Source: Alphaproteobacteria bacterium (GTDB lineage Bacteria > Pseudomonadota > Alphaproteobacteria > UBA828). Taken from it: a stretch of DNA of 64,000 nucleotides. The notes beneath the pieces were generated by a model. That model worked only from the letters and a program-made list of their open reading frames with translations, ran no database searches and was not told the origin of the DNA. Below are positions 3,820 through 63,741 of the stretch, in pieces. The DNA lies in the NCBI GenBank assembly GCA_963422645.2, contig CAXXVO010000017.1, forward strand, positions 224,001 through 288,000. Reading direction: 5' to 3'. Within the stretch, counting starts at the first letter, position 1; each line of letters opens with the position of its first letter. The translations under genes and the position numbers were made by a program.

Positions 3820-4893
3820 TTACCGCGAAGCACCCCGATCTTCTGCCAAGGCGCGCTCGATGGCGGGCCTGATCTCGCTGGCGAAGGCCCGAATGGTCCG
3901 CTCGGCCTGCGTCATGGTGGAGCCCGCGGCCTGGATGTTCAGCATCATGTGGCTCGCGCCTGAGGCGCGGATGTCGGCGGTGAGCCGTGCCGCGACCGTG
4001 GCGGCGTCGCCCACCGGCAGGCTCGCCGCCATCTCCTCCAACGGCGGCTCGCCGGAGAACGGGCGTTCGACGAGCATGCCGCCGTCCATCGCCTCCTGCC
4101 GGTTGCGCAGCGCGGCGGCAAAGCGCATCTGCTGGCGGGCGTTGACCAGGTAGTCCAACGTCTCCTCATCGCTCTCGGTCACGCAAACGAAGCGCAGGAT
4201 CCCGAGTTCGTGCGTCTCCCCGCCAAGGCCCTCGGCGGCGTAGGACGCATCGATGCGCTCCCGTTGCTCGGCCAGGTAGTCGGCGCCGAACCAGCGGCCG
4301 GTGATGATCGGCACGAAACCGCGCCGCGCCGCCAGCTTGTGGGTCGACTCGGAATCACCTGCGATCCAGATCGGTGGCACGCCTTCCGGCGGGCGCGTAC
4401 TGATGCTGGTCTCCGGCAGCGCGGTGAATTCGCCGTCGAAGCTGAAGGTCTCGCCCGCATACGCCCGGTCCATGAGCGCGAGGAACTCATCAAGCCGCGC
4501 CTTGGAATCGCCCAGATCGGCGCCGAAGCGCTCGAACTCGTAGGGCTGGTAGCCGCTACCCAGCCCCAGCAGGAAGCGATCCTCGCCCAGCAGCGCCTGG
4601 GTCATGCCGATCTCGGCGAGCAGCCGCACCGGGTGATAGAGCGGCACCACGATCACCGCCGGGCCGAGCTTGATCCGCGTGGTCAGGCCGGCGCAGTGAT
4701 TGACCATGACCAGGGGCGAGGGGCAGACGCAGTAGTTGGAGAAATGATGCTCGGCGAACCAGGCGGCTTCGAAGCCCGCCTCCTCGGCCCACTGCACCAT
4801 CTGCACCGCGTTGCCGAGCACCTCGGAGATCGCGCTTCCGCGGTCCCGATAGCCCATGAGACAGAACAAGCCGAAGCTGACCATGTCACTCAC
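3820..4893 (-). CDS. LLM-class (luciferase-like) flavin-dependent oxidoreductase
   Basis: AEEAGFEAAWFAEHHF, HPVRLLAE and LGLGSGY motifs. Confidence 0.9.
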   Translation of the reverse strand: MSDMVSFGLFCLMGYRDRGSAISEVLGNAVQMVQWAEEAGFEAAWFAEHHFSNYCVCPSPLVMVNHCAGLTTRIKLGPAVIVVPLYHPVRLLAEIGMTQALLGEDRFLLGLGSGYQPYEFERFGADLGDSKARLDEFLALMDRAYAGETFSFDGEFTALPETSISTRPPEGVPPIWIAGDSESTHKLAARRGFVPIITGRWFGADYLAEQRERIDASYAAEGLGGETHELGILRFVCVTESDEETLDYLVNARQQMRFAAALRNRQEAMDGGMLVERPFSGEPPLEEMAASLPVGDAATVAARLTADIRASGASHMMLNIQAAGSTMTQAERTIRAFASEIRPAIERALAEDRGASR

Positions 4894-54361: not shown

Positions 54362-55807
54362 GTGGAATTGAATGAAGAATTTACGGATCTCGGCTTGAGC
54401 GAGCCGCTGCTCGCCGCCGTTGCCGAGGCCGGCTACGAGACGCCCACGCCGATTCAGCAGAAGGCCATCCCGCTGGTCCTGCGCGGTGTCGACGTGCTGG
54501 GCTGCGCCCAGACCGGCACGGGCAAGACCGCGTCCTACGCGCTGCCGATCATCGACATATTGAGCTCCGGCACGGGCAAGTCGCGCATGCCGCGCTGCCT
54601 GATCCTGGCGCCGACGCGAGAGCTCGCACAGCAGATCGCGGACAACTTCGCAACCTACGGCGCCAAACACAGCCTGCGCCAGGCGCTGCTCATCGGCGGC
54701 GAGGGATTCACGCTTCAGGAAGCCGCGCTCGGCAAGGACCCCGACATACTGATCGCCACGCCCGGCCGCCTGATCGACATGTTCGAGCGGGGCCGGATTA
54801 TGCTGGGCGGCGTCAAGGTGCTGGTGATCGACGAGGCCGATCGCATGCTCGACATGGGCTTCATCCCGGATGTCGAGCGCATCGTCCAGACGCTCCCGCG
54901 CATCCGCCAGACTCTCATGTTCTCCGCCACGCTCGGGCCCGAGATCAAGCGGCTCGGCAAAGAGTTTCTGATCAACCCGAAGGAGGTGAGCGTCGCGCCG
55001 TCGGCCACGGTGGCCGGCACCGTCAGCCACGCGATGATCCTGGTTGACCCTGAAGAGAAGCGCGTTGCGCTGCGTGTCCTGCTCCGCGACGAGGCGGTGC
55101 AGAGCGCGCTGATCTTCTGCAACCGCAAGAGGGACGTCGATATCGTCTGCGCTTCGCTCCAGCGCCACGGCATGGACGCCCGCGCGCTGCACGGCGACAT
55201 GGTGCAGTACCGCCGGACCGAGACGCTGGCGGCATTCAAGGGCGGCGAGGTCAACCTCCTCGTCTGCAGCGACGTGGCCGGGCGCGGCCTCGATATCGAG
55301 GCCGTCTCCCACGTCATCAACTTCGACGTGCCCCACAATCCGGAGGACTACGTTCATCGCATCGGCCGCACCGGCCGGGCTGGCCGCGAAGGCCGGGCGA
55401 TCACCTTGGCCACGCACGAGGAAGCCGAGGCGGTGGACGCCATCGCGGCGCTCGTCAATGCCACGATCCCGCTCACGACCGCCGATGGCGAGCCGGCCGA
55501 GCTCGACTCCGCCCTCCGCGATCGCGGGCGTCCGCGCCGCGGCCGCCGGGGTCGGGATGAGCCCCGCACGACCGAGAAGCGGCCCGCGCGCAGTCGGACG
55601 CGCAGCACGGCGGCCGCCGAGAGCCGGCCCAAACGGGAGAAGAAGCCCGCGGGCACCGCGGAGGCAAGTGAGAGCCAACCTGCCCGCAGGGCGACCGAGA
55701 AGAGCACACCTGCGCGCGGGGACGAGCCAGTTACGGGGCTCGGCGATCACGTGCCAGCGTTCCTCAGCGATCCCTTCCCGGTTCTGCCGCCCGGCGCGGA
55801 GCGCTAG
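54362..55807 (+). CDS. DEAD-box RNA helicase (RhlE-like)
   Basis: Q motif, AQTGTGKT, PTRELA, DEAD, SAT and HRIGRTGRAG; basic disordered tail; SD GGAGG upstream of GTG. Confidence 0.95.
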   Translation: MELNEEFTDLGLSEPLLAAVAEAGYETPTPIQQKAIPLVLRGVDVLGCAQTGTGKTASYALPIIDILSSGTGKSRMPRCLILAPTRELAQQIADNFATYGAKHSLRQALLIGGEGFTLQEAALGKDPDILIATPGRLIDMFERGRIMLGGVKVLVIDEADRMLDMGFIPDVERIVQTLPRIRQTLMFSATLGPEIKRLGKEFLINPKEVSVAPSATVAGTVSHAMILVDPEEKRVALRVLLRDEAVQSALIFCNRKRDVDIVCASLQRHGMDARALHGDMVQYRRTETLAAFKGGEVNLLVCSDVAGRGLDIEAVSHVINFDVPHNPEDYVHRIGRTGRAGREGRAITLATHEEAEAVDAIAALVNATIPLTTADGEPAELDSALRDRGRPRRGRRGRDEPRTTEKRPARSRTRSTAAAESRPKREKKPAGTAEASESQPARRATEKSTPARGDEPVTGLGDHVPAFLSDPFPVLPPGAER

Positions 55808-55951
55808 AGCGCGTCCGACTTAGACGGACGCGCGAGAGGCCGCGACCGCGGCCCGCCGCGAATGCGGCGCCCTCGCGGAGGTGTCGGCCGCAGGCCGGCT
55901 GCCGTGAGCGACAAGACGTAAGAGCGTTTCCGTGTAAAGCGGAAACGCTCT
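55804..55951 (+). repeat. CTAG-anchored intergenic repeat family B, copy 2, plus terminal palindrome
   Basis: Starts at the helicase TAG; homologous to 32936-33012; hairpin AGAGCGTTTCCG-N7-CGGAAACGCTCT at 55921-55951. Confidence 0.75.
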
Positions 55952-56049
55952 CGCCCGCACACCACACCGCAGTCACGGCCGGCGTCGCGTCCCGCGTGTC
56001 TTGCGGAAGCGGACGACGCCAGAGAACTTTGGACTCATCTTTTTTCTGC

Positions 56050-56084
56050 GGGATTCGCCGGGATTGAGCGGGATAAGTGGGATT
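56050..56084 (+). repeat. GGGA(T) direct-repeat array, copy 2
   Basis: GGGAT at 56050, 56060, 56070 and 56079. Confidence 0.7.
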
Positions 56085-56174
56085 CGGTAGAGCGGGTGGC
56101 GGCCGGTGCAGGCGGCAGCCACTCGACCGGGGAGCACCTCCCCGCGTCAGCCGTCGCGCGGCCAAGTACGGCGG

Positions 56175-56708
56175 TTAAAGCTCGTTCTTGTAGAAACGGC
56201 CGTCCTTCATGATGACCGGAATGTGGCGGCCCTGCTCCTGAAGCAGTCCGAGATCGCTGAGGGGGTCACCGTCCACCACCAGGATGTCCGCCAGCGCCCC
56301 CGGCGCGATGGTGCCGAGCTCGCCTGAGCGCTGCGTCAGCGCGGCGTTGATCGAGGTTGCGGAGCGCAGCACGTCCACAGGTGCAAGCACCTCGCTCCGG
56401 ATCAGGAACTCCTGGCTCTGCCGGTCCTGCAAGGGCCCGAGCAGGTCGGTGCCAAAGCCCATGGGCACGCCGGCGGCCTGGCAAACCTCGAGCGAGCGCA
56501 GCCCGTCGTTGCCGAGATCCTGAAGCTTGTCGGCGAATACCTTGCGCAGACCGAACTCGGCGCCTGACTCCAGCATCGCGAATAGCGTAACCAGCGTCGG
56601 CACGACGAAGGCGCCGGCCTCTGCGGCGGCCTCCGCCGCTTCTGCGTCGATCTGGGTGCCGTGCTCGATCGAGCGCACGCCGAGCGCGGCGCAGCGGCGC
56701 ACCGCGCT
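56175..56708 (-). pseudogene. 3' part of a metal-dependent amidohydrolase interrupted by the Mu-like element
   Basis: SAVRRC..GVRSIEHG, FGTD and ADILVVDGDPL; joins in frame with 61248-61948. Confidence 0.92.
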
Positions 56709-56978
56709 TGTAGGGGGACGAAAGTCATTGCGAATCCGGAAGATGCCGGGAAGAAGGCGGAAGAAGGCGGACGGTCAAGGGGTTGGCGGCGTTTCCGGGG
56801 TCTGGCGGGCCGGACGAAAGTCTTTGCGAATCCGGCCCGGAAAGGGCCGTGAATTGGCTGGAAACGGTGATTTTCGGGGCGTTTCAGGGGTGCTGAAAGG
56901 CCTGTAAATCGGGGCGGTTCCGGGGGTGCGGATTCGCCGGTAAATCGGGGTGCGGCGCGGTGCTTCGCCTCGCCCGGT

Positions 56979-57917
56979 CTACGATGCCGGCGTTGTCCCC
57001 GCGCCGGCCTCCTTCCCTTCGAGATCGGTGCGCCGCGGGTCGCGTGCGATCTCTTCATCGGAGAACGGCTTTCGCCCGGGGTTCTCGACCTCCCAGTTTT
57101 CCATCCATGGCAGCGACTGGCATCCGCAGTTGATCGTCTCGGCGGCGGGTCCGGCGGGATCGCGGGGGTACATGAGCGAAGCGCCGCCGACGTCGAAGGG
57201 CCTGGCGGCTTCCCTGGTCTGTCCGTCGACGGCGTCGTGGGCGATGCGGCTTCTGAGCTTTCCGGAGCGTCGCCACTGCTTCCTCAGCCCCGGCAGGATC
57301 CCGGCGGCCTGCTCCATGCGCTGCTGTCCGGCCATGGAGTATGCGCGGCCGAGCTCGGTCCGCACGATTGTCAGGGCGCGGGACCTGCCGCCGGTCTTGA
57401 GGATGGCGGCGACGCGTCCGGTGGTCTCGCCGACGGGGACCGAGCCGGCCATGGCGAGGCCGAGTTCGGTATTGACGCGCTCGGCAAGCGTCGTGGAGAC
57501 GTCCTTCATCCTGTCGGTGAGGAAGGATCGCATGGCGAGGAGCTGGCGGGTGTCGACCTCGGGCAGGACGGCGGCGATGCGGAAGTCGGGGGCATCGAGG
57601 CGCATGGCGGCGTCGACGGGGGCGTCCATGGTATCGATGCCGGCGTCCCAGGCGCGGGTTGCGCCCTCGGCCATGGCCCGCCCGGCGTCTGCGCCGAGGC
57701 TGTCGAGGGCGTCCCGGACGGAGGCCTGGAGGGATGGCAGCGCCCACGCCTGGTAATCGGAGGGCGCGCCGGCGAGGGTGGCCCGGATGTCGCGCTCGGC
57801 GCGCCCGAGGATGCGGCCGACCTCGGCGGCGGTGTCCTTCTGGATGCGGGGCAGGGCGCGGGCGCGGCGGGATCGCTCGCCCTTGAGCCTGCGCTCGCGC
57901 TGACGGTCGGTAGCCAC
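56979..57917 (-). CDS. Phage minor head protein (Mu F / SPP1 gp7 family)
   Basis: RALTIVRTELGRAY, KQW, R.AH..DGQ and MYPRDP..ETINCGC; follows the portal gene. Confidence 0.85.
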   Translation of the reverse strand: MATDRQRERRLKGERSRRARALPRIQKDTAAEVGRILGRAERDIRATLAGAPSDYQAWALPSLQASVRDALDSLGADAGRAMAEGATRAWDAGIDTMDAPVDAAMRLDAPDFRIAAVLPEVDTRQLLAMRSFLTDRMKDVSTTLAERVNTELGLAMAGSVPVGETTGRVAAILKTGGRSRALTIVRTELGRAYSMAGQQRMEQAAGILPGLRKQWRRSGKLRSRIAHDAVDGQTREAARPFDVGGASLMYPRDPAGPAAETINCGCQSLPWMENWEVENPGRKPFSDEEIARDPRRTDLEGKEAGAGTTPAS

Positions 57918-57920
57918 GTG

Positions 57921-59351
57921 CTACGCCTCGCCGTCGTCGTCGTCCTCGTCCTGCGGGGGCTCGCGGAAGGCGTCTTCTTCGGCCCGTCCGGCGGCGTCTT
58001 CGCGCGCCGCCTCGAGTTCGGCGTCGGCGTCGATCTCGACGCCGAGGCGCCCGGCGACGGCGGCGATGACGCGGAGCGCGGTGGCGTCCGAGAGCAGGCC
58101 GCGCTCGATGGCGAGCGCCGCGGCGCCTGCGGTCTGGGCGAGCGCGGCGGCGTGTCGGGAGGCGTCGGCGACCACCATCTCGGGCCATTCGACGGAGACG
58201 GCGAGGGCGGGGTCTGCGGGATCGGGCCATGATGCGCCGGAGGGGTCGAGCCTGCGGGCGATGGCGTAGTCTGCGGCCCGGCGCAGGATCTCGGTCCACA
58301 GCCTCTGGCGCATCTTGAGGGTCTTGAAGGCGGGATCGCCCATCTCTGCGGCGGTTGCGCGGTTGACGTCGCCGCCGCCGCCGAACCAGTGCTCGGGCAT
58401 GCCGGCGCCGCCGAGCAGGTGGTTGCGGAAGAGGCGGGATGTTGCGTCGAGGTCGCGGCCGCCGAGGTCCGGGGCGAGGGGCTGCCAGGTCTCGCTCTCG
58501 TTGTGGACGCGGACGGTTCCGGGCGTGGGCGCCGTGGCCCTTGCGGCGCGCTCCTCGACCTCTTCCTGACTGGCGCCGGTCATGGTGACGTCCCAGACGA
58601 AGGCGCGGAGGAAGTGGGCGCGGTCGATCTCTCCGAAGAGGTGTCGCTCGTATCCGTCGAGCCAGTCGATGGCGGCGAGCAGGTCGGAGCGTCCGCGGGA
58701 TGCGCCGGGCCTGGCGTTGGCGCGGAAGTAGAGGATGTCGCCCGAGGTCATGGTCTCGCGGATGGCGCGGGCGGCGGGCGCGAGGGCGGTCTCGGGTCCG
58801 CCGATGGCGGTGCGGTAGCGCCGGGCTTCGCCCCTGCGGTCCTTCTTCGTCACGATGCCGATGGGGCGGGACGCGTTGTCGGGGTCCATGACCACGGTCT
58901 CGACGGCGTCGGGGTCGAGCCACGCCATGCGGACGTGACCGGAGGCGGGGTCTGCGAAGACGGGCCATGCGGTCTCGCCGGCGAGCGCGAGGTCGCGCAT
59001 GAGCTCGGGGAGGCGGAGCGGCATGTCGGTGACGGGATCGCGCCACCATGCGTCGAGCCATTCCTGGGCGTCCGGATCGGGGACGCGCACGCGCACGCCG
59101 TCGGCGAGGAGGAAGGCGATGGGGAGTTCGACCAGTTGCCGGGCGAGGAGGTTGGTCTCCCAGAGATGGGCGGCGAGCTTCCTCATCCTGCTCTGGGTCA
59201 GCGGCGAGAGGTCGCGGCGTCCGTCTCCGGTGAGCGGGCGCCACTGGTCCTCGTCCCTGTCGATTCCCTTCCCCGCCGCCTCCCGGAGGGCGGTAGCGTG
59301 CGGCGGGGCGCCGCCGAGCATGCGGATGAGGGCGGAGCGGATCACCGCCAC
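57921..59351 (-). CDS. Phage portal protein
   Basis: 476 aa between terminase and minor head genes; GRSDL, PEHWFGGGGDVNRATA and acidic tail. Confidence 0.75.
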   Translation of the reverse strand: MAVIRSALIRMLGGAPPHATALREAAGKGIDRDEDQWRPLTGDGRRDLSPLTQSRMRKLAAHLWETNLLARQLVELPIAFLLADGVRVRVPDPDAQEWLDAWWRDPVTDMPLRLPELMRDLALAGETAWPVFADPASGHVRMAWLDPDAVETVVMDPDNASRPIGIVTKKDRRGEARRYRTAIGGPETALAPAARAIRETMTSGDILYFRANARPGASRGRSDLLAAIDWLDGYERHLFGEIDRAHFLRAFVWDVTMTGASQEEVEERAARATAPTPGTVRVHNESETWQPLAPDLGGRDLDATSRLFRNHLLGGAGMPEHWFGGGGDVNRATAAEMGDPAFKTLKMRQRLWTEILRRAADYAIARRLDPSGASWPDPADPALAVSVEWPEMVVADASRHAAALAQTAGAAALAIERGLLSDATALRVIAAVAGRLGVEIDADAELEAAREDAAGRAEEDAFREPPQDEDDDDGEA

Positions 59352-59675
59352 ATCCCCTCCCCGGGCCGCCCGAACATGGTGAGGGGCTGGCGCCCGGCAA
59401 GGCGGGAGGGTGTGAAGGCGTCGCGGGGATCGCCCTGCGCCCAGGCGCCGGCCGGGGGCGGGCGGCTTTCGGCGGCAGCCGCGCAGGCCAGCGCTGCGGC
59501 CCAGAAGCGGTCGGCATGGCCGTCGGTCTCGCCGTCGGCGGCGAGGCGGGGGCTGCCGGTGGGTCCGACGGTCTTGCGCACGGCGTGCAGGTCGGCGCGG
59601 AGCACCGGGTCGCCGGAGGGCACGCGGATGGTGCGGTCTTCGAAGCGCTCCTTCAGCGCGGTGGCGAGGTCGATA
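59342..59675 (-). pseudogene. C-terminal fragment of a Mu gp28-like terminase large subunit
   Basis: DLATALKERFEDRTIRVP...DLHAVRK...GHADRFWAAALA; ATPase domain missing. Confidence 0.8.
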
Positions 59676-59893
59676 CCTCCGGCAAGCACTACGTCACCTT
59701 CGAGGTCGCCTCGAGCAGGCTATTCTCGTCGCCGAAGCGGTATTTCGACAGAGTCCTATCCACTATTCACTATAAAGGATGGCAGCCGCCGTTCTCCGGC
59801 GCGGTCTACGTCCGCGCTAGATTCACGACCCTGCCGAGGGACGCAGGATCACGAGGCCCCTGGTCGGTCACCTACACCCATCGGGCGTCCTAG
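59676..59893 (+). pseudogene. 3' remnant of a phage gene (possibly tail-fibre C-terminus)
   Basis: Open frame without a credible start ending TAG 59893; VYVRARF..GPWS resembles an FN3-like strand; followed by SD AGGAG. Confidence 0.4.
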
Positions 59894-59907
59894 GAGATTC
59901 GACGGCG

Positions 59908-60531
59908 GTGCCCGGCGTGAGAGACCCCCGCGAATCAACCCCGGTCGAGCCCGGAGAGGGTTCCACCCCCCCCATTCGCGTCGTCCGCGCAGCCATCGGC
60001 CCTCGAGCAATGGCCGAGGTCGAGCGAGCCGTCAACGGGCTCGCGCTCGCGCGCCGGGGCCCCGGCGCGGACGACTGCTACGAGGCATGGCTGCCCGACG
60101 GGATGCTCCCGGCAGACTGCACCGACGCCCTGGACGCCCTCGCCCGCAACTACGCCCGCGAGGTGCTGAACGCACGCGCGGACACGCCCTCGCCCGCCGT
60201 CTGCAACTGTTACTTCGCAGGACAGGCCTGCCTCTGGCACGTCGACCAGTACGCAGGGCGGGGAGTTCCCGACACCCTCGACCGGACCGTCTCCGCAAGC
60301 CTCATCGTCGAACGCGCCGCAGCCGGCGGCGACATGGTCTTCCAGGACCCGGGCCGGAAACGCCGCCCCGTACGGATCGACCCGCCGCCGGGATCGCTCG
60401 TCCTCTTCCCCGCAGACTGGTGGCACAGGGTCGCACCCGCCACCGCCGGCATCCGCCGCTCGCTCGTGCGATGGTGGGCGCAGTCGAACGGAGAGAGGTT
60501 CTCGTCCCTCGCCCGGCCCGACGGAGGATGA
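59908..60531 (+). CDS. 2OG-Fe(II) oxygenase (prolyl hydroxylase/PKHD-like)
   Basis: WHVD (HxD), GGD, GSLVLFP...HRVAP and RRSLV (R-x-S); start uncertain. Confidence 0.85.
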   Translation: MPGVRDPRESTPVEPGEGSTPPIRVVRAAIGPRAMAEVERAVNGLALARRGPGADDCYEAWLPDGMLPADCTDALDALARNYAREVLNARADTPSPAVCNCYFAGQACLWHVDQYAGRGVPDTLDRTVSASLIVERAAAGGDMVFQDPGRKRRPVRIDPPPGSLVLFPADWWHRVAPATAGIRRSLVRWWAQSNGERFSSLARPDGG

Positions 60532-60535
60532 CACG

Positions 60536-61078
60536 GTGATCGACATCCAGGACGCGATCCGCCGGCTCATGGCGCACGACGGCCTGCGTCCGCCCCACGG
60601 CTTCCTGCCGGGCTCCTTCCCCGGCGGCATCGACACGATGTTCGACGAGGCGACATGGAAGGCCTACGGCTGGAACCCGATCCCCGGCCTGCCGGACTAC
60701 GGCCCCGACCCGGACGCCAGCCCCAAGCCGGCATGGGCCATGATCGCCGAAGCGGGCGAGCGCGCCGCCGCCGAAGACCTCCGGCAAGAAAGGGCGCAAG
60801 GGCTCGACCGGGAGGCAACCCGCCGCATCCGGAAGGCCTACGGGGCAAGGAGCTGGGAGCACGAGGCCAGACGGCGGCTGCGCGGCGCCGCCACCGAGGA
60901 GCAGGACGCCGAACGCGACCGCCTGCGCCGGCTCTGCCGCGCGCTCCGCAAGCGCATCGAAACCATGGACGCGGGCGCGCTCGAGCGCTTCGACGCAGCC
61001 GACGACAGACACTGGCGCCCGCCCGAAGCCGGGCCCGCCCAGCCCCCCGCGCCCGAGGCGGAGGAGAAGGCGGAATAG
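60536..61078 (+). CDS. Phage protein, putative tail-fibre assembly chaperone (DUF4376-like)
   Basis: SD GGAGG; PKPAW, helical EATRRI and C-terminal FDAADDRHW pattern; last gene before the right end. Confidence 0.55.
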   Translation: MIDIQDAIRRLMAHDGLRPPHGFLPGSFPGGIDTMFDEATWKAYGWNPIPGLPDYGPDPDASPKPAWAMIAEAGERAAAEDLRQERAQGLDREATRRIRKAYGARSWEHEARRRLRGAATEEQDAERDRLRRLCRALRKRIETMDAGALERFDAADDRHWRPPEAGPAQPPAPEAEEKAE

Positions 61079-61247
61079 AACCCTTGCAGGGGCCGTGCAC
61101 ACCGAATTCCGCGCCCCTGAACGGCCCGTGCATGGCCGATGCAGAGGCCGTTTTTCCAGCCCGAATCAGCCCCGAAAATCAGCCTGTTTTCCAGGCCATT
61201 CGCAAAGACTTCTGGCCGCGATTCGCAAAGACTTCTGGCCGGCTACA

Positions 61248-61948
61248 GCGCTCGCCGTGTGCGCATGGGCCATCACATAGGTGCGCCGGGTCGCCGCCTC
61301 CTCCACGCCGACCCTGATTTCCTCGTCGGAGTACTGGTCCATCCAGAGGGGATCGGTCGGCGAGAGCACGCCGCCCGACACCATCATCTTGATCTGGTGC
61401 GCTCCCTTGCGAAGCTCCTCCCGCACCACCTGGCGCACCGCATCGACGCCGTCGGCCACCTGCGAGACGATCCCGTGATAGCCGGCGCAGCCGCAGGGCT
61501 CGAAGCGGGTCTGGTTGCGCATGTCGCCGTGGCCGCCGGTCTGGCTGATGGCCCGGCCGGAGAAGAGCACCCTCGAGCCCGCGATCAAGCCTTGCTCCAC
61601 GGCGAGCGCCAGCCCCAGGTCGGCGCCGCCCGCATCGCGCACCGTGGTGAAGCCCCGCTTCAGCGAGCTTTCGAGGCTGAGCCTTGCGTGCTGGTAGATC
61701 AGGGACGCCGGCATGTCGTCGAGCGACGGGATGTTGAGGTCAACGAGGAGAGCGTGGAAATGGGCATCGATCAGGCCCGGCATCAGCGTTCGCCCGCCGC
61801 AGGCTACGCGTTCCGCATCGGCCGGTGCGCGGACCGCGCCGTCGGCGACCTCCTTGATCCGGCCCTCCTCGACCACCACGGCCGCGTTCTCGCGTGGCTC
61901 GGCGGAGACCCCGTCGAACACTCTGCATCCCTCGAAGATGATCGTCAC
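61248..61948 (-). pseudogene. 5' part of the interrupted amidohydrolase (Xaa-Pro dipeptidase-like)
   Basis: MPGLIDAHFH, GFTTVRDAGG, SQTGGHGD, IKMMVSGG and MAHAH; broken at TASA. Confidence 0.92.
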
Positions 61949-61980
61949 GGCGCCATTCTCCCCTTTGCTCAATCCGCCCT

Positions 61981-63741
61981 TTACCAGGCGAGCCCGTAGG
62001 CCGGTCGCCGCGGGTCCGCCCCGCCCGAGAGCGTGCCCCCTTCGCCCTCCTTGACCAGCACGCACATGGCGCCGGCGGGCCAAGCCCACTCCGGCCACCA
62101 CTCGACCCCGTGGCCCCAGGCGGCGAGTGTGTCGCCGGCTGCCTCCGAGATGCGCCCCTCCAGCATCAGCTTGCCCGGATGGTACTCGTGCGGCTCGAAG
62201 GAATTGGGGAAGCTCATGGTCGCAAACCTTGGCGCTTCCACCGCGGCCTGCGGGTTCATGCCGTAGACCACGATGTTCACGAAGGTCTGGAGCATCGCCT
62301 GGATCTGAACGTCGCCGCCGGGCGTGCCGAAGGGCATGACGAACCCGTCTTCGCCCATGGCGAGCGCCGGGTTTGGCGTGAGCCGCGGCCGCTTGCCGGG
62401 CGCCACGCTCGAGGCGTGCGCGGGATCGGCCCAGGACTGCGCGCCGCGCGAAGAGGCGCAAAGCCCGGTGCCCGGAATTACCGGCGAATCGAATGAGATA
62501 TCGCTCGGCGTCGCCGAGAAGACGTTGCCTTCGTCATCGATGACGCAGACGTAGGAGGTGTCGTGCGCGGCCTCCACGGGCCCCGTTGAGGCCGCTCCCT
62601 GCGCGCAGGCGAGCGTCGCCAGTCCTTGCGCCGGGTCGCCCGCCGGCGGCATCTCGAGCCATGCCTCGCCGGGCCGGATGAGGGCGCGGCGGCTGGCGGC
62701 GTAGTCGTCGGAGAGGAGCGCCGCCGTCGGCACGTCGACGAAGCGCGGGTCGCCGATCCAGCGCTCGCGGTCGGCAAAAGCTAATTTCAGCGCCTCCGCC
62801 ATCATGTGCAGCGCTTCCGGGCTGTTGTGGCCGTGCGCGGCCAGCGCCTTCGTGTCCAGCAGGCGAAGCGCCTGAAGCAGCGTCGGCCCCTGGCACCAGG
62901 GGCCGCAGGCGTAAACGTCGATGCCCTCGATCGTGACCCGCTCGGGCGGCTCCACCGCCACCCTGAAGGAGGCGAGGTCGTCGGCCGTGAGCAGGCCGCC
63001 CTTCTCCCGGTGGTGGTTCACGATGGCGGCGGCGATGTCGCCCCGGTAGAAGGCCGCGCGGGCGGCATCGAGCCCGGCCCCGCGGTCGTCGCCGGCAGCG
63101 CGCTCCTCGTCCGCCATGTACTGGAGCGAGCGCCCGAGGTCGGCCTGCACAAAGAGATCGCCCACGGCAGGCGGCCGGCCGCCGGGCAGATAGATTTCGG
63201 CGTTCGACGGCCAGCGGTTGTACGCGTCGGCCTTCTTGGCGATGACGCTCGCCATCAGTGGGTACATCACGAAGCCGTCGCGTGCGAGCCGGATCGCGGC
63301 CTCTGCCACCTCGCCGAAGGTCATGGTGCCGTGGCGTTCCAGCGCGGTGATCCAGGCGTCCGGCGCGCTCGGCACGACTGTGCGCAGCGGGCCCACCGGG
63401 ATGTGACCGTCGTGCTCGCGCACGAAGAGATCGGGCGTAACCGCCGCCGGCCAGGTGCCGAGCCCGCTAATGGTCTCCACCTGCCCGGTCTTCGCGCTGT
63501 AGAGGATGATCGGCGCAACGCCCGCGACGTTGACGAGATCACTGTGCACGACACCCAAAGCGATGCCCGCGGCGACGCCCGCATCGATGGCGTTGCCGCC
63601 CGCCTCCAGGATCGCGAAGCCTGCCTGTGCGGCGAGGTAGTGTCCGGCCACGATCGCGTGCCGGTGGCCGCGGATCACCGGCCTGAGCGCGTCGATCGCC
63701 TCCGGGTCGAACAGCGCGTACTCGCTCCTGCGTTCGCTCAT
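61981..63741 (-). CDS. Gamma-glutamyltransferase family protein
   Basis: GGNAIDAGVA, nucleophile Thr in HDTSY, PGKRPRLT, FGTPGGD and ADPRR. Confidence 0.93.
   Translation of the reverse strand: MSERRSEYALFDPEAIDALRPVIRGHRHAIVAGHYLAAQAGFAILEAGGNAIDAGVAAGIALGVVHSDLVNVAGVAPIILYSAKTGQVETISGLGTWPAAVTPDLFVREHDGHIPVGPLRTVVPSAPDAWITALERHGTMTFGEVAEAAIRLARDGFVMYPLMASVIAKKADAYNRWPSNAEIYLPGGRPPAVGDLFVQADLGRSLQYMADEERAAGDDRGAGLDAARAAFYRGDIAAAIVNHHREKGGLLTADDLASFRVAVEPPERVTIEGIDVYACGPWCQGPTLLQALRLLDTKALAAHGHNSPEALHMMAEALKLAFADRERWIGDPRFVDVPTAALLSDDYAASRRALIRPGEAWLEMPPAGDPAQGLATLACAQGAASTGPVEAAHDTSYVCVIDDEGNVFSATPSDISFDSPVIPGTGLCASSRGAQSWADPAHASSVAPGKRPRLTPNPALAMGEDGFVMPFGTPGGDVQIQAMLQTFVNIVVYGMNPQAAVEAPRFATMSFPNSFEPHEYHPGKLMLEGRISEAAGDTLAAWGHGVEWWPEWAWPAGAMCVLVKEGEGGTLSGGADPRRPAYGLAW

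Follow-up and report, generated by a model that had tools for sequence, protein, structure and literature searches.

A phage-derived element interrupts an amidohydrolase gene

The stretch of DNA analysed here (hereafter the window) comprises 64,000 nucleotides of contig CAXXVO010000017.1, positions 224,001 to 288,000, from the assembly GCA_963422645.2 of an Alphaproteobacteria bacterium of the UBA828 lineage, and carries a 4,539-bp phage-derived element inserted into an amidohydrolase gene. The tips of the element read TGTAG (56709-56713) and CTACA (61243-61247), and a copy of the 5-bp target-site duplication GCGCT lies directly outside each of them (56704..56708 on the left and 61248..61252 on the right); contigs of the empty site, described below, carry a single copy. 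The host gene is read on the minus strand. Its 5' part (61248..61948) and its 3' part (56175..56703) match consecutive segments of the Pfam Amidohydro_1 profile, respectively positions 1-156 (1.6e-19) and 166-340 (2.1e-10). When 56704-61247 was cut out by script, joining 61948-61248 to 56703-56175, a minus-strand frame of 1230 bp was restored, with 409 codons, a sole terminal stop and the reading ..MAHAHTASAVRRCAALGVRS.. over the join. An earlier note on this DNA, made from the sequence alone, had described these ends, the GCGCT duplication and a clean insertion into an amidohydrolase gene that rejoins in frame over 1230 bp, and all of these features are borne out by the sequence and by the scripted excision.

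The two ends of the element are asymmetric. The left, attL-like end (56709..56978, plus strand), of a type termed LA below, begins with the terminal TGTAG and contains two 24-nt repeats (56716-56739 and 56812-56835) at a spacing of 96 bp, while the right, attR-like end (61079..61247, minus strand), with its terminal TGTAG on the minus strand, contains two adjacent repeats. Four copies of a 14-nt core motif, AAGTCNTTGCGAAT, are present in the window, all of them within the element ends: at 56722 and 56818 on the plus strand and at 61198 and 61221 on the minus strand, the right cores occupying 61198-61211 and 61221-61234. Only 0.02 occurrences would be expected by chance, and none of 100 shuffles yielded four. 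The paired 24-nt repeats are presumed to be transposase-binding sites.

Between these ends the genes are arranged in two groups facing away from each other. The left group is read on the minus strand, toward the left end, and consists of the 3' remnant of a large terminase gene (59345..59673), a portal gene of 476 codons (57921..59351; PHROG 10963, 6.6e-58) and an F-like head-morphogenesis gene of 312 codons (56979..57917; PHROG 2468, 2.4e-31). The F-like protein scored 1.4e-5 and 26.2 bits against Pfam Phage_Mu_F, under the 29.6 cut-off. The terminase remnant aligns with positions 96-152 only of the Terminase_6C profile; it retains the last 110 codons, which correspond to residues 423-532 of the 532-aa protein found in sister copies. 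The right group is read on the plus strand and consists of the 3' end of a long tail-tip (GpJ-like) frame that counts 1444 codons in sister copies (59675..59893), a 207-aa open reading frame (ORF) for a 2-oxoglutarate (2OG)-Fe(II) oxygenase (59908..60531; Pfam 2OG-FeII_Oxy_3, 3.7e-10; PHROG 61, 8.8e-14), which has eight tblastn matches in the genome, and a 180-aa ORF (60536..61078). The latter has no match in Pfam, PHROG or NCBIfam, and its Atlas leads reach just 0.88-0.89, below 0.9. Of the gene list in the earlier note, the terminase fragment, the portal, the head protein and the 2OG oxygenase can be retained, and the label 'tail-chaperone-like' has to be dropped for the 180-aa ORF, which matches no family. 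The absence of transposase, repressor and capsid genes that it reported was confirmed with the ORF list and Pfam/PHROG scans, and the same scans detected neither a TnsB/TniA-type transposase nor a TnsC/TniB ATPase in the element.

The two gene groups meet at an internal deletion junction (59673..59675), where 59673 is the last base of the left arm, 59675 the first of the right arm and 59674 a single filler T. Sister copies on contigs C13, C6 and C9 run on beyond 59673 into a full terminase gene, and parent copies of the right arm extend upstream into the GpJ-like frame (FNIII-A_GpJ, 3.8e-12 in the full frame). In a comparison with these parental arm copies, neither microhomology nor an insertion sequence (IS) remnant was found at the junction. 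The element hence consists of the outermost 2,965 bp of a left arm and the outermost 1,573 bp of a right arm. Roughly 35-39 kb, including the A and B genes, appears to have been lost between the terminase and tail-tip genes.

The insertion is polymorphic among samples

Logan contigs of four sequencing runs were aligned to positions 55500-62500 of the window; three of these runs, X1, X4 and X5, share one organism label. In X1, a 3675-bp contig with a depth of 10.8 (flanks ~11) joins 56703 directly to 61248, and the same 56703>61248 join is present in a 766-bp contig of X5, a run from another study (2015). At both joints five letters fit either side, so that the contigs represent the empty site with a single GCGCT. 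No empty joint was seen in X4, in which one contig of 1194 bp begins 29 nt within the right end and extends into flanking DNA, marking the site as occupied. Between the empty and occupied alleles the flanks differ by 0-2 bases over 766-3675 bp. Since the X1 and X5 contigs cross the site without the element and with a single GCGCT, the insertion is real and polymorphic among samples. The empty-site sequence for which the earlier note had proposed a search has thus been found, and the recent event that it had read from the undecayed ends and host gene halves is upheld by a site that is empty in X1 and X5 and occupied in X4.

A second polymorphism lies just upstream of the interrupted gene, where positions 55803-55951 hold a repeat of ~150 bp with 63 blast matches in the genome. 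An X4 contig omits 55807-55971 (165 bases) and has 19 other letters instead. The window therefore carries both the repeat and the element, X1 the repeat only and X4 the element only, a distribution that requires strain recombination or independent events.

About forty gutted copies reside in one genome

The genome to which the window belongs (G000 in the coordinates given below) amounts to 5.9 Mb in 23 contigs, and its assembly is rated 99.6% complete. When the 4,539-bp unit was compared with this genome by blast, dozens of matches were obtained that started from its position 1 or extended to its position 4539, with varied internal breaks. A pattern search anchored on TGT[AG]G identified 88 family ends, every one of which begins with TG (88/88). 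Twenty-four are of the LA type, 20 belong to a second left type (LB) ~72% identical to LA, 41 are right ends and three are of other types. The right ends form four subtypes with a common last ~118 bp, and 12 of them are of the exact subtype carried by the element in the window. The element of the earlier note is accordingly real, and the implication that it stands alone has to be abandoned.

Twenty left-right pairs located on the same contig are flanked by perfect 5-bp duplications and span 893-22,672 bp. They display 19 distinct duplications (GCGGC occurring twice) at 20 different sites. The phage centre is missing from all 20 paired copies, and each copy that was examined has its own deletion junction. 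The small two-ended copies of 893, 1127 and 1567 bp retain both tips. The target preference of bacteriophage Mu follows the consensus N-Y-(G/C)-R-N. The 20 pairs match it, with G or C at the centre of the duplication in 20/20 (chance 3.6e-4 at 67% GC), a pyrimidine at position 2 in 15/20 and a purine at position 4 in 13/20; GCGCT itself fits at the centre only.

The remaining 48 of the 88 ends are unpaired, and many run straight into copies of IS21 or of Tn5.2, a transposon described below. Among them, six left-right pairs located on different contigs have matching duplications, as compared to 1.05 expected, a count reached in 1 of 500 random draws; therefore some partners have been separated by rearrangement. 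Altogether, one genome contains about forty gutted, transposase-less copies with two ends or one.

IS21 is present in 9/20 pairs and Tn5.2 genes in 6/20. The genome holds 66 full-length IS21-family copies, whose IstA and IstB proteins were confirmed by NCBIfam. At the junction of the 893-bp copy lies a 10-nt stub of a Tn5.2 end (TGAGCGCGCG). Apparent overlaps of 28 nt and 21 nt at sister junctions were distrusted, as they may result from alignment spill, and the junction results are mixed. In three separate LA elements the match to the left arm breaks off at one common point, 198 nt from the tip; all three contain IS21 (in two orientations), as do several LB elements near the left tip. This hints at an IS21 target hot spot in the left end of the phage; loci noted genome-wide in this respect include C9:570772, C19:136610 and C10:36829.

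The sister copies reveal more of the two arms than the element itself. Toward the left end, the left arm encodes in succession GemA, an HNH protein, an SLT lysozyme, Mu gp27, the large terminase, the portal and F, with matches of 9.1e-25 for GemA, 4.5e-32 for Phage_Mu_Gp27, 6.6e-78 for Portal_Mu (LB portal) and 2.4e-22 for Phage_Mu_F (LB F). Toward the right end, the right arm carries the GpJ-like tail-tip frame (1119 or 1444 codons), followed in one variant by a glycine-rich protein and a 298-aa protein and in the other by the 2OG oxygenase and the 180-aa ORF. The F-like gene has seven further ungapped full-length copies in the genome, and the ratio of non-synonymous to synonymous differences (pN/pS) is ~0.5 in most pairs. 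For the portal gene, with two other ungapped full-length copies, it is 0.13-0.34 (three pairs), the differences being mostly synonymous; the copies thus descend from phage lineages that were functional while diverging.

The 298-aa right-arm protein (L012:499-1395, G000:C6:103120-104016) has 28 further tblastn matches and no match in Pfam or NCBIfam. By eye, it contains a GGGIDS stretch and a CxxCxxC stretch, which may resemble those of PP-loop enzymes such as QueC, and its gene occupies the position in which Mu keeps its DNA-modification gene.

Three further arrangements were noted among the sister copies. The 22.7-kb 'LB element' on C8 was rejected as a single element and is probably a recombinant patchwork, its middle being 90-98% identical to a module at C16:155565-173421. 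This module is itself a prophage remnant (G000:C16:155565-173421) with a Dam methylase gene, capsid and head-tail genes, a tube-like gene and the start of a tape-measure-like gene; it lies between two inverted IS21 copies and adjoins an ORF that by eye resembles a tyrosine integrase. On C1, a third and more distant subtype of right-type end occurs in two identical copies (G000:C1:18366 and C1:27807) that face each other with the same 5-bp flank, GCAGG, and C1:17642-18366 has the appearance of a mini-element of 725 bp that lacks a matching duplication. This arrangement may represent an inverted duplication or a contig artefact.

The closest full-length relative is a two-armed Mu-like phage

The closest full-length relative is the 43.6-kb viral genome UViG_3300029651_000002 of IMG/VR (G041; L036-L038), estimated by CheckV to be 95% complete; the Microcystis phage Mae-JY22 (PP438414.1) is also among the closest sequenced full-length relatives. 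The portal of the element is ~53-54% identical to the portals of G041, of a further relative (G042) and of Mae-JY22, and the F-like protein of G041 is 44.8% identical to the best copy in the genome. Such relatives are rare in the collections searched: the INPHARED phage collection gave one portal match only, and in IMG/VR four loci match the portal and two distant loci match F. Among other genomes, the portal was found in 1/40 (G028), in 0/20 within the genus and in 1/48 others of the order, again G028.

G041 is organised in two operons. The first encodes a 592-aa IS481-like DDE protein, an HU-like protein, a 420-aa protein with helix-turn-helix (HTH) and AAA_22 domains, Gam (2.5e-39), GemA and Mor (a weak match, at 23.8 bits just under the cut-off), and continues through lysis genes, gp27, the small and large terminases, the portal and F to one end of the phage. 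The second runs through capsid, tube, tape measure, tail tip and accessory genes to the other end. This two-armed layout, with early, lysis, packaging, portal and F genes read one way and capsid and tail genes the other, is unusual for a Mu-like phage. The 592-aa putative transposase has no Pfam rve match and matches NCBIfam IS481 only under the cut-off. The centre of the relatives that is missing from the element thus comprises a DDE protein of 591-592 aa and an AAA_22 ATPase, and in G041 also Gam, the weak Mor, capsid and tape measure.

The order terminase, portal, F, phage end is common to the element and its relatives. Homology between G041 and G042 ends ~140 bp beyond F, as would be expected if different host flanks of a transposable phage followed there. 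G041 starts with TGAACGGGAGTGAGATAAAT, and the end sequences of the relatives differ from those of the TGTAG family, so that these phages are not the cognate helper. In the copy carried by the window the evidence for Mu-type genes is modest, F falling under the Pfam cut-off and the portal being recognised by PHROG only. Taken with the Mu-family genes of sisters and relatives, the ends and the duplications substantiate the description of the element as a Mu-like, TG..CA-bounded, transposase-less and internally deleted phage derivative.

Mini-elements recur in two other genomes

A metagenome-assembled genome found via the end pattern (G043, OZ241868.1) contains one mini-element at three loci (L040, L041 and L044). 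The copies measure 1284, 1291 and ~1080 bp, are 86-93% identical and have TGTAG...CTGCA ends. Two have perfect duplications of their own (ATCGC and ACGAG); the third is flanked by GACAC on the left and CGACA on the right, which we read as a one-base alignment offset. Neither Gam nor an A-type or Tn5.2-type transposase was detected in G043. The same genome also has two further left ends and a larger remnant with a terminase fragment, portal, F and a left end (C1:1245379-1248992).

In G028, a two-ended element of ~6 kb with the duplication CTGGT (G028:C8:198308-204364; L028) shares 98-99% identity with the arms of a copy of ~20 kb on another contig (G028:C7:67143-87049). This longer copy is transposase-less, is devoid of early genes and terminase and is damaged at its left tip. 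The 6-kb element is an internal-deletion derivative of it.

No helper was found in the assembly

The possibility raised in the earlier note of a full-length helper prophage with MuA/MuB-type genes was not sustained by tblastn, HMM (hidden Markov model) or profile searches of the assembly. With all G041 and Mae-JY22 proteins as tblastn queries, no homologue of A, B, Gam, capsid or tape measure was detected in the genome; HMMs based on three proteins each for A, B and Gam, and a profile search, likewise revealed no A, B or Gam helper. The portal, terminase and F, which served as controls in these searches, scored strongly. Pfam DDE_2 (PF02914) and Mu-transpos_C (PF09299) matched nothing in the genome, nor in any of 14 control genomes, so that this negative carries little weight. 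The 15 kb inward of the 48 unpaired ends contain IS genes, arm genes and other frames, none of which matched A, B or Gam of the relatives in the genome-wide searches. Contigs C1, C2 and C20 and two stray DUF3486 genes (C10 and C13), considered as a possible helper, hold no helper genes. The exact left end was absent from the genome contig collection and the degenerate end pattern from the metagenome and viral contig collections; the end pattern occurs in only two other genomes, neither with a detectable A-type gene. The helper may be an episomal or unassembled phage.

An rve search of the genome gave 114 matches, which led to IS21 and to Tn5.2. The latter is a 5,192-bp transposon (G000:C8:807700-812891) with the ends TGAGCG...CGCTCA. 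About seven further full copies (e.g. C8:135589-140777 and C13:183975-189163) are 99.4-100% identical, and none lies in the window. Tn5.2 encodes a 205-aa HTH protein, a 524-aa IS481-like DDE transposase, a 277-294-aa AAA_22 ATPase and a 289-aa DUF3991-Toprim protein. Its transposase has 31 tblastn matches, 14 of them full length. Tn5.2 is often nested in TGTAG elements, in either orientation. We rejected Tn5.2 as the A-B module of the phage itself, as it has sharp ends of its own, occurs in either orientation and is also found outside the elements.

Arrival as a deleted copy or shrinkage in place

What was observed is the structure of the element, its membership of a family, an unoccupied site and an assembly in which no helper was found; from this we infer the enzyme that probably acted, its binding to the repeats and the timing of the deletion as follows. 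The intact parent would have consisted of two divergent arms with the A/B centre between them; in the lineage of this copy the centre would have been lost and the arms joined non-homologously with one filler base. The ends, with their TG/CA termini and repeat pairs, should have remained a competent substrate for a Mu-type DDE transposase, which would have joined the two 3' ends to the target with a 5-bp stagger inside the amidohydrolase gene. Because the element encodes no transposase, the enzyme must have been supplied by a full-length phage genome of this family. In the reading that we favour, the copy would already have been deleted at integration, having been either mobilised in trans as a mini-element or produced 'dead on arrival' from a full-length donor.

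That the copy arrived already deleted is, in our judgement, a finely balanced proposition. In its favour are the same mini unit at three sites in G043, the 6-kb derivative in G028, the clean junction without an IS remnant and the very small copies that retain both tips. The nearest left-arm copies among the blast matches listed are on C7 (99.1% over 1,612 bp) and C13 (98.65% over all 2,965 bp); set against the 0-2 differences in the flanks, this divergence indicates that the donor seems to lie outside the genome and that little time has elapsed since insertion.

Several observations weigh against such an arrival. The 59673/59675 junction occurs once in the genome, and an exact-match scan of the Joint Genome Institute (JGI) metagenome contigs did not return it, so that the 4.5-kb unit whose presence at several loci the earlier note had set as a test was not recovered; movement of these 4.5 kb as one unit is therefore not proven. 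Among the junctions examined in the genome, none is common to two copies. Some sister copies, as illustrated by the 10-nt Tn5.2 stub and by the IS21 and Tn5.2 insertions in the pairs, were eroded stepwise, and in-place shrinkage does therefore happen in this genome. No helper was found in the assembly, and no contig among those listed bridges 59674, the contigs stopping at 59673 or starting at 59675.

The strongest rival explanation is that a ~40-kb phage integrated at GCGCT by means of its own transposase and later underwent one illegitimate in-place deletion of 35-39 kb. We consider this account a serious one, if marginally improbable. It would accommodate the unique junction and the lack of a junction common to the sister copies examined. 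Rearrangement is rife in this genome, with 66 full-length IS21 copies, 31 Tn5.2 transposase matches, 48 of 88 ends unpaired with many abutting IS21 or Tn5.2, and the Tn5.2 stub at one sister junction. Mostly synonymous portal differences would also be expected if functional phages had seeded the copies, and deleted prophages are known from survivors of Mu induction. However, two events would have to fit into the brief interval after the divergence of the occupied and empty alleles, and about forty full-length insertions would be required in a genome where none is intact now. The 893-, 1127- and 1567-bp copies that retain both tips, as well as the related genomes with the same mini unit at several sites, also speak against it. 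Beyond the single copy in the window, a master copy spawning deleted offspring, serial infections followed by decay, and trans-mobilisation all fit the data.

A resident transposase might alternatively move the TGTAG elements, Tn5.2 being the best candidate, since its DDE transposase and AAA_22 ATPase are the closest to MuA/MuB in the genome. Tn5.2 is the top match of both the phage A profile (E=0.05, 12.8 bits) and the phage B profile (8.3e-5), NCBIfam IS481 is matched by a phage A protein (1.9e-13) as well as by the Tn5.2 transposase (1.6e-31), and the 99.4-100% identity of its copies suggests activity. The A-profile match is nevertheless not significant, the ends of Tn5.2 (TGAGCGCGCGCGG.. 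/ ..CGCACGCTCA) have no motif in common with the TGTAG ends, and G043 multiplied its TGTAG mini-elements yet has no Tn5.2 transposase match. We regard mobilisation by Tn5.2 as very unlikely. Least credible of all, even though no contig among those listed bridges 59674, is an assembly artefact in which a larger prophage collapsed at this position: a collapse requires a shared repeat and the parental sequences meeting there have no homology and are joined through one filler base, contig breaks of this kind are how a de Bruijn graph behaves at the divergence of repeated arms, 66 IS21 copies and repeats of 5.2 kb were resolved in the assembly, and the two ends face each other with matching duplications around an exact empty site.

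Relation to known mobile elements

The element is genuine. It is a non-autonomous remnant of a Mu-like transposable phage that was inserted recently, and is notable mainly as one of about forty. Transposable phages are usually represented by one or a few prophages per genome. We tentatively propose, while rating it as somewhat improbable, that this genome together with G028 and G043 harbours a natural population of helper-dependent mini-Mu elements, either hyperparasites or dead-on-arrival offspring of a two-armed phage. If this were true, mini-elements would spread or be generated each time A and B are provided by a full-length phage, possibly through transduction in helper headful capsids or through abortive replicative transposition followed by end joining. 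Transposable phages would then be a source, in bacteria, of non-autonomous families comparable to Ac/Ds or to truncated long interspersed nuclear elements (LINEs), with a tailed phage as the autonomous partner and mutagenic debris that outlasts the phage in its hosts. At least one polymorphic insertion knocks out a host gene. The two ends, ~200 bp long at the left and ~115 bp at the right, also represent natural minimal ends of a Mu-like transposition system that is new.

Phage satellites such as P4, phage-inducible chromosomal islands (PICI) and PICI-like elements (PLE) resemble the element in their reliance on the proteins of another phage and in carrying few head genes. They differ from it in that no integrase, primase/replication module or helper-interference gene was detected among its five ORFs with Pfam, PHROG and NCBIfam, in that gene content varies here from copy to copy, and in that integration takes place by transposition and not by site-specific recombination. 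The element, for which the earlier note had considered a satellite as one option, is thus not a satellite in the sense of P4 or PICI. Transposons of the Tn7, Tn5053 and Tn552 types are set apart by the cargo of the element, which consists of phage structural genes with neither TnsB/TniA nor TnsC/TniB.

The likeness to Mu is much closer. It includes the TG..CA termini, the 5-bp duplications at unrelated sites and the G/C-centred target (20/20) and, as a sequence pattern, the asymmetry of the ends, one of which has its repeats spaced apart and the other side by side. It further includes Portal_Mu, Mu F, gp27, GemA, Gam and a weak Mor, encoded by sister copies and relatives. Compared with an autonomous Mu-like phage, the element fails in a single feature, A and B. 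The Mu genome is co-linear, whereas in the parent phage the genes for early functions, lysis and packaging point toward the left end and those for capsid and tail toward the right end. Like a mini-Mu, the element has kept both ends and is devoid of A and B. The mini-Mu's described in published accounts are engineered (PMC8705779; PMC3145075). The element, by contrast, is natural and retains random portions of its two arms. Searches of the literature gave no account of naturally occurring mini-Mu families, subscription journals and supplements being outside the scope of the search.

A comparable organisation is found among non-autonomous transposons, namely the Ds derivatives of Ac, deleted P elements and bacterial miniature inverted-repeat transposable elements (MITEs), which have likewise kept their ends, lost their transposase through internal deletion, multiplied to many copies with different target duplications and remained polymorphic in their insertions; the short unit of G043 multiplied in this manner. 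A typical MITE family is uniform in structure, whereas here no deletion is common to the copies examined and no autonomous partner was found in the genome. What distinguishes the present family from Ds, deleted P elements and MITEs alike is the nature of its parent, which is a 40-kb tailed phage and not a small transposon.

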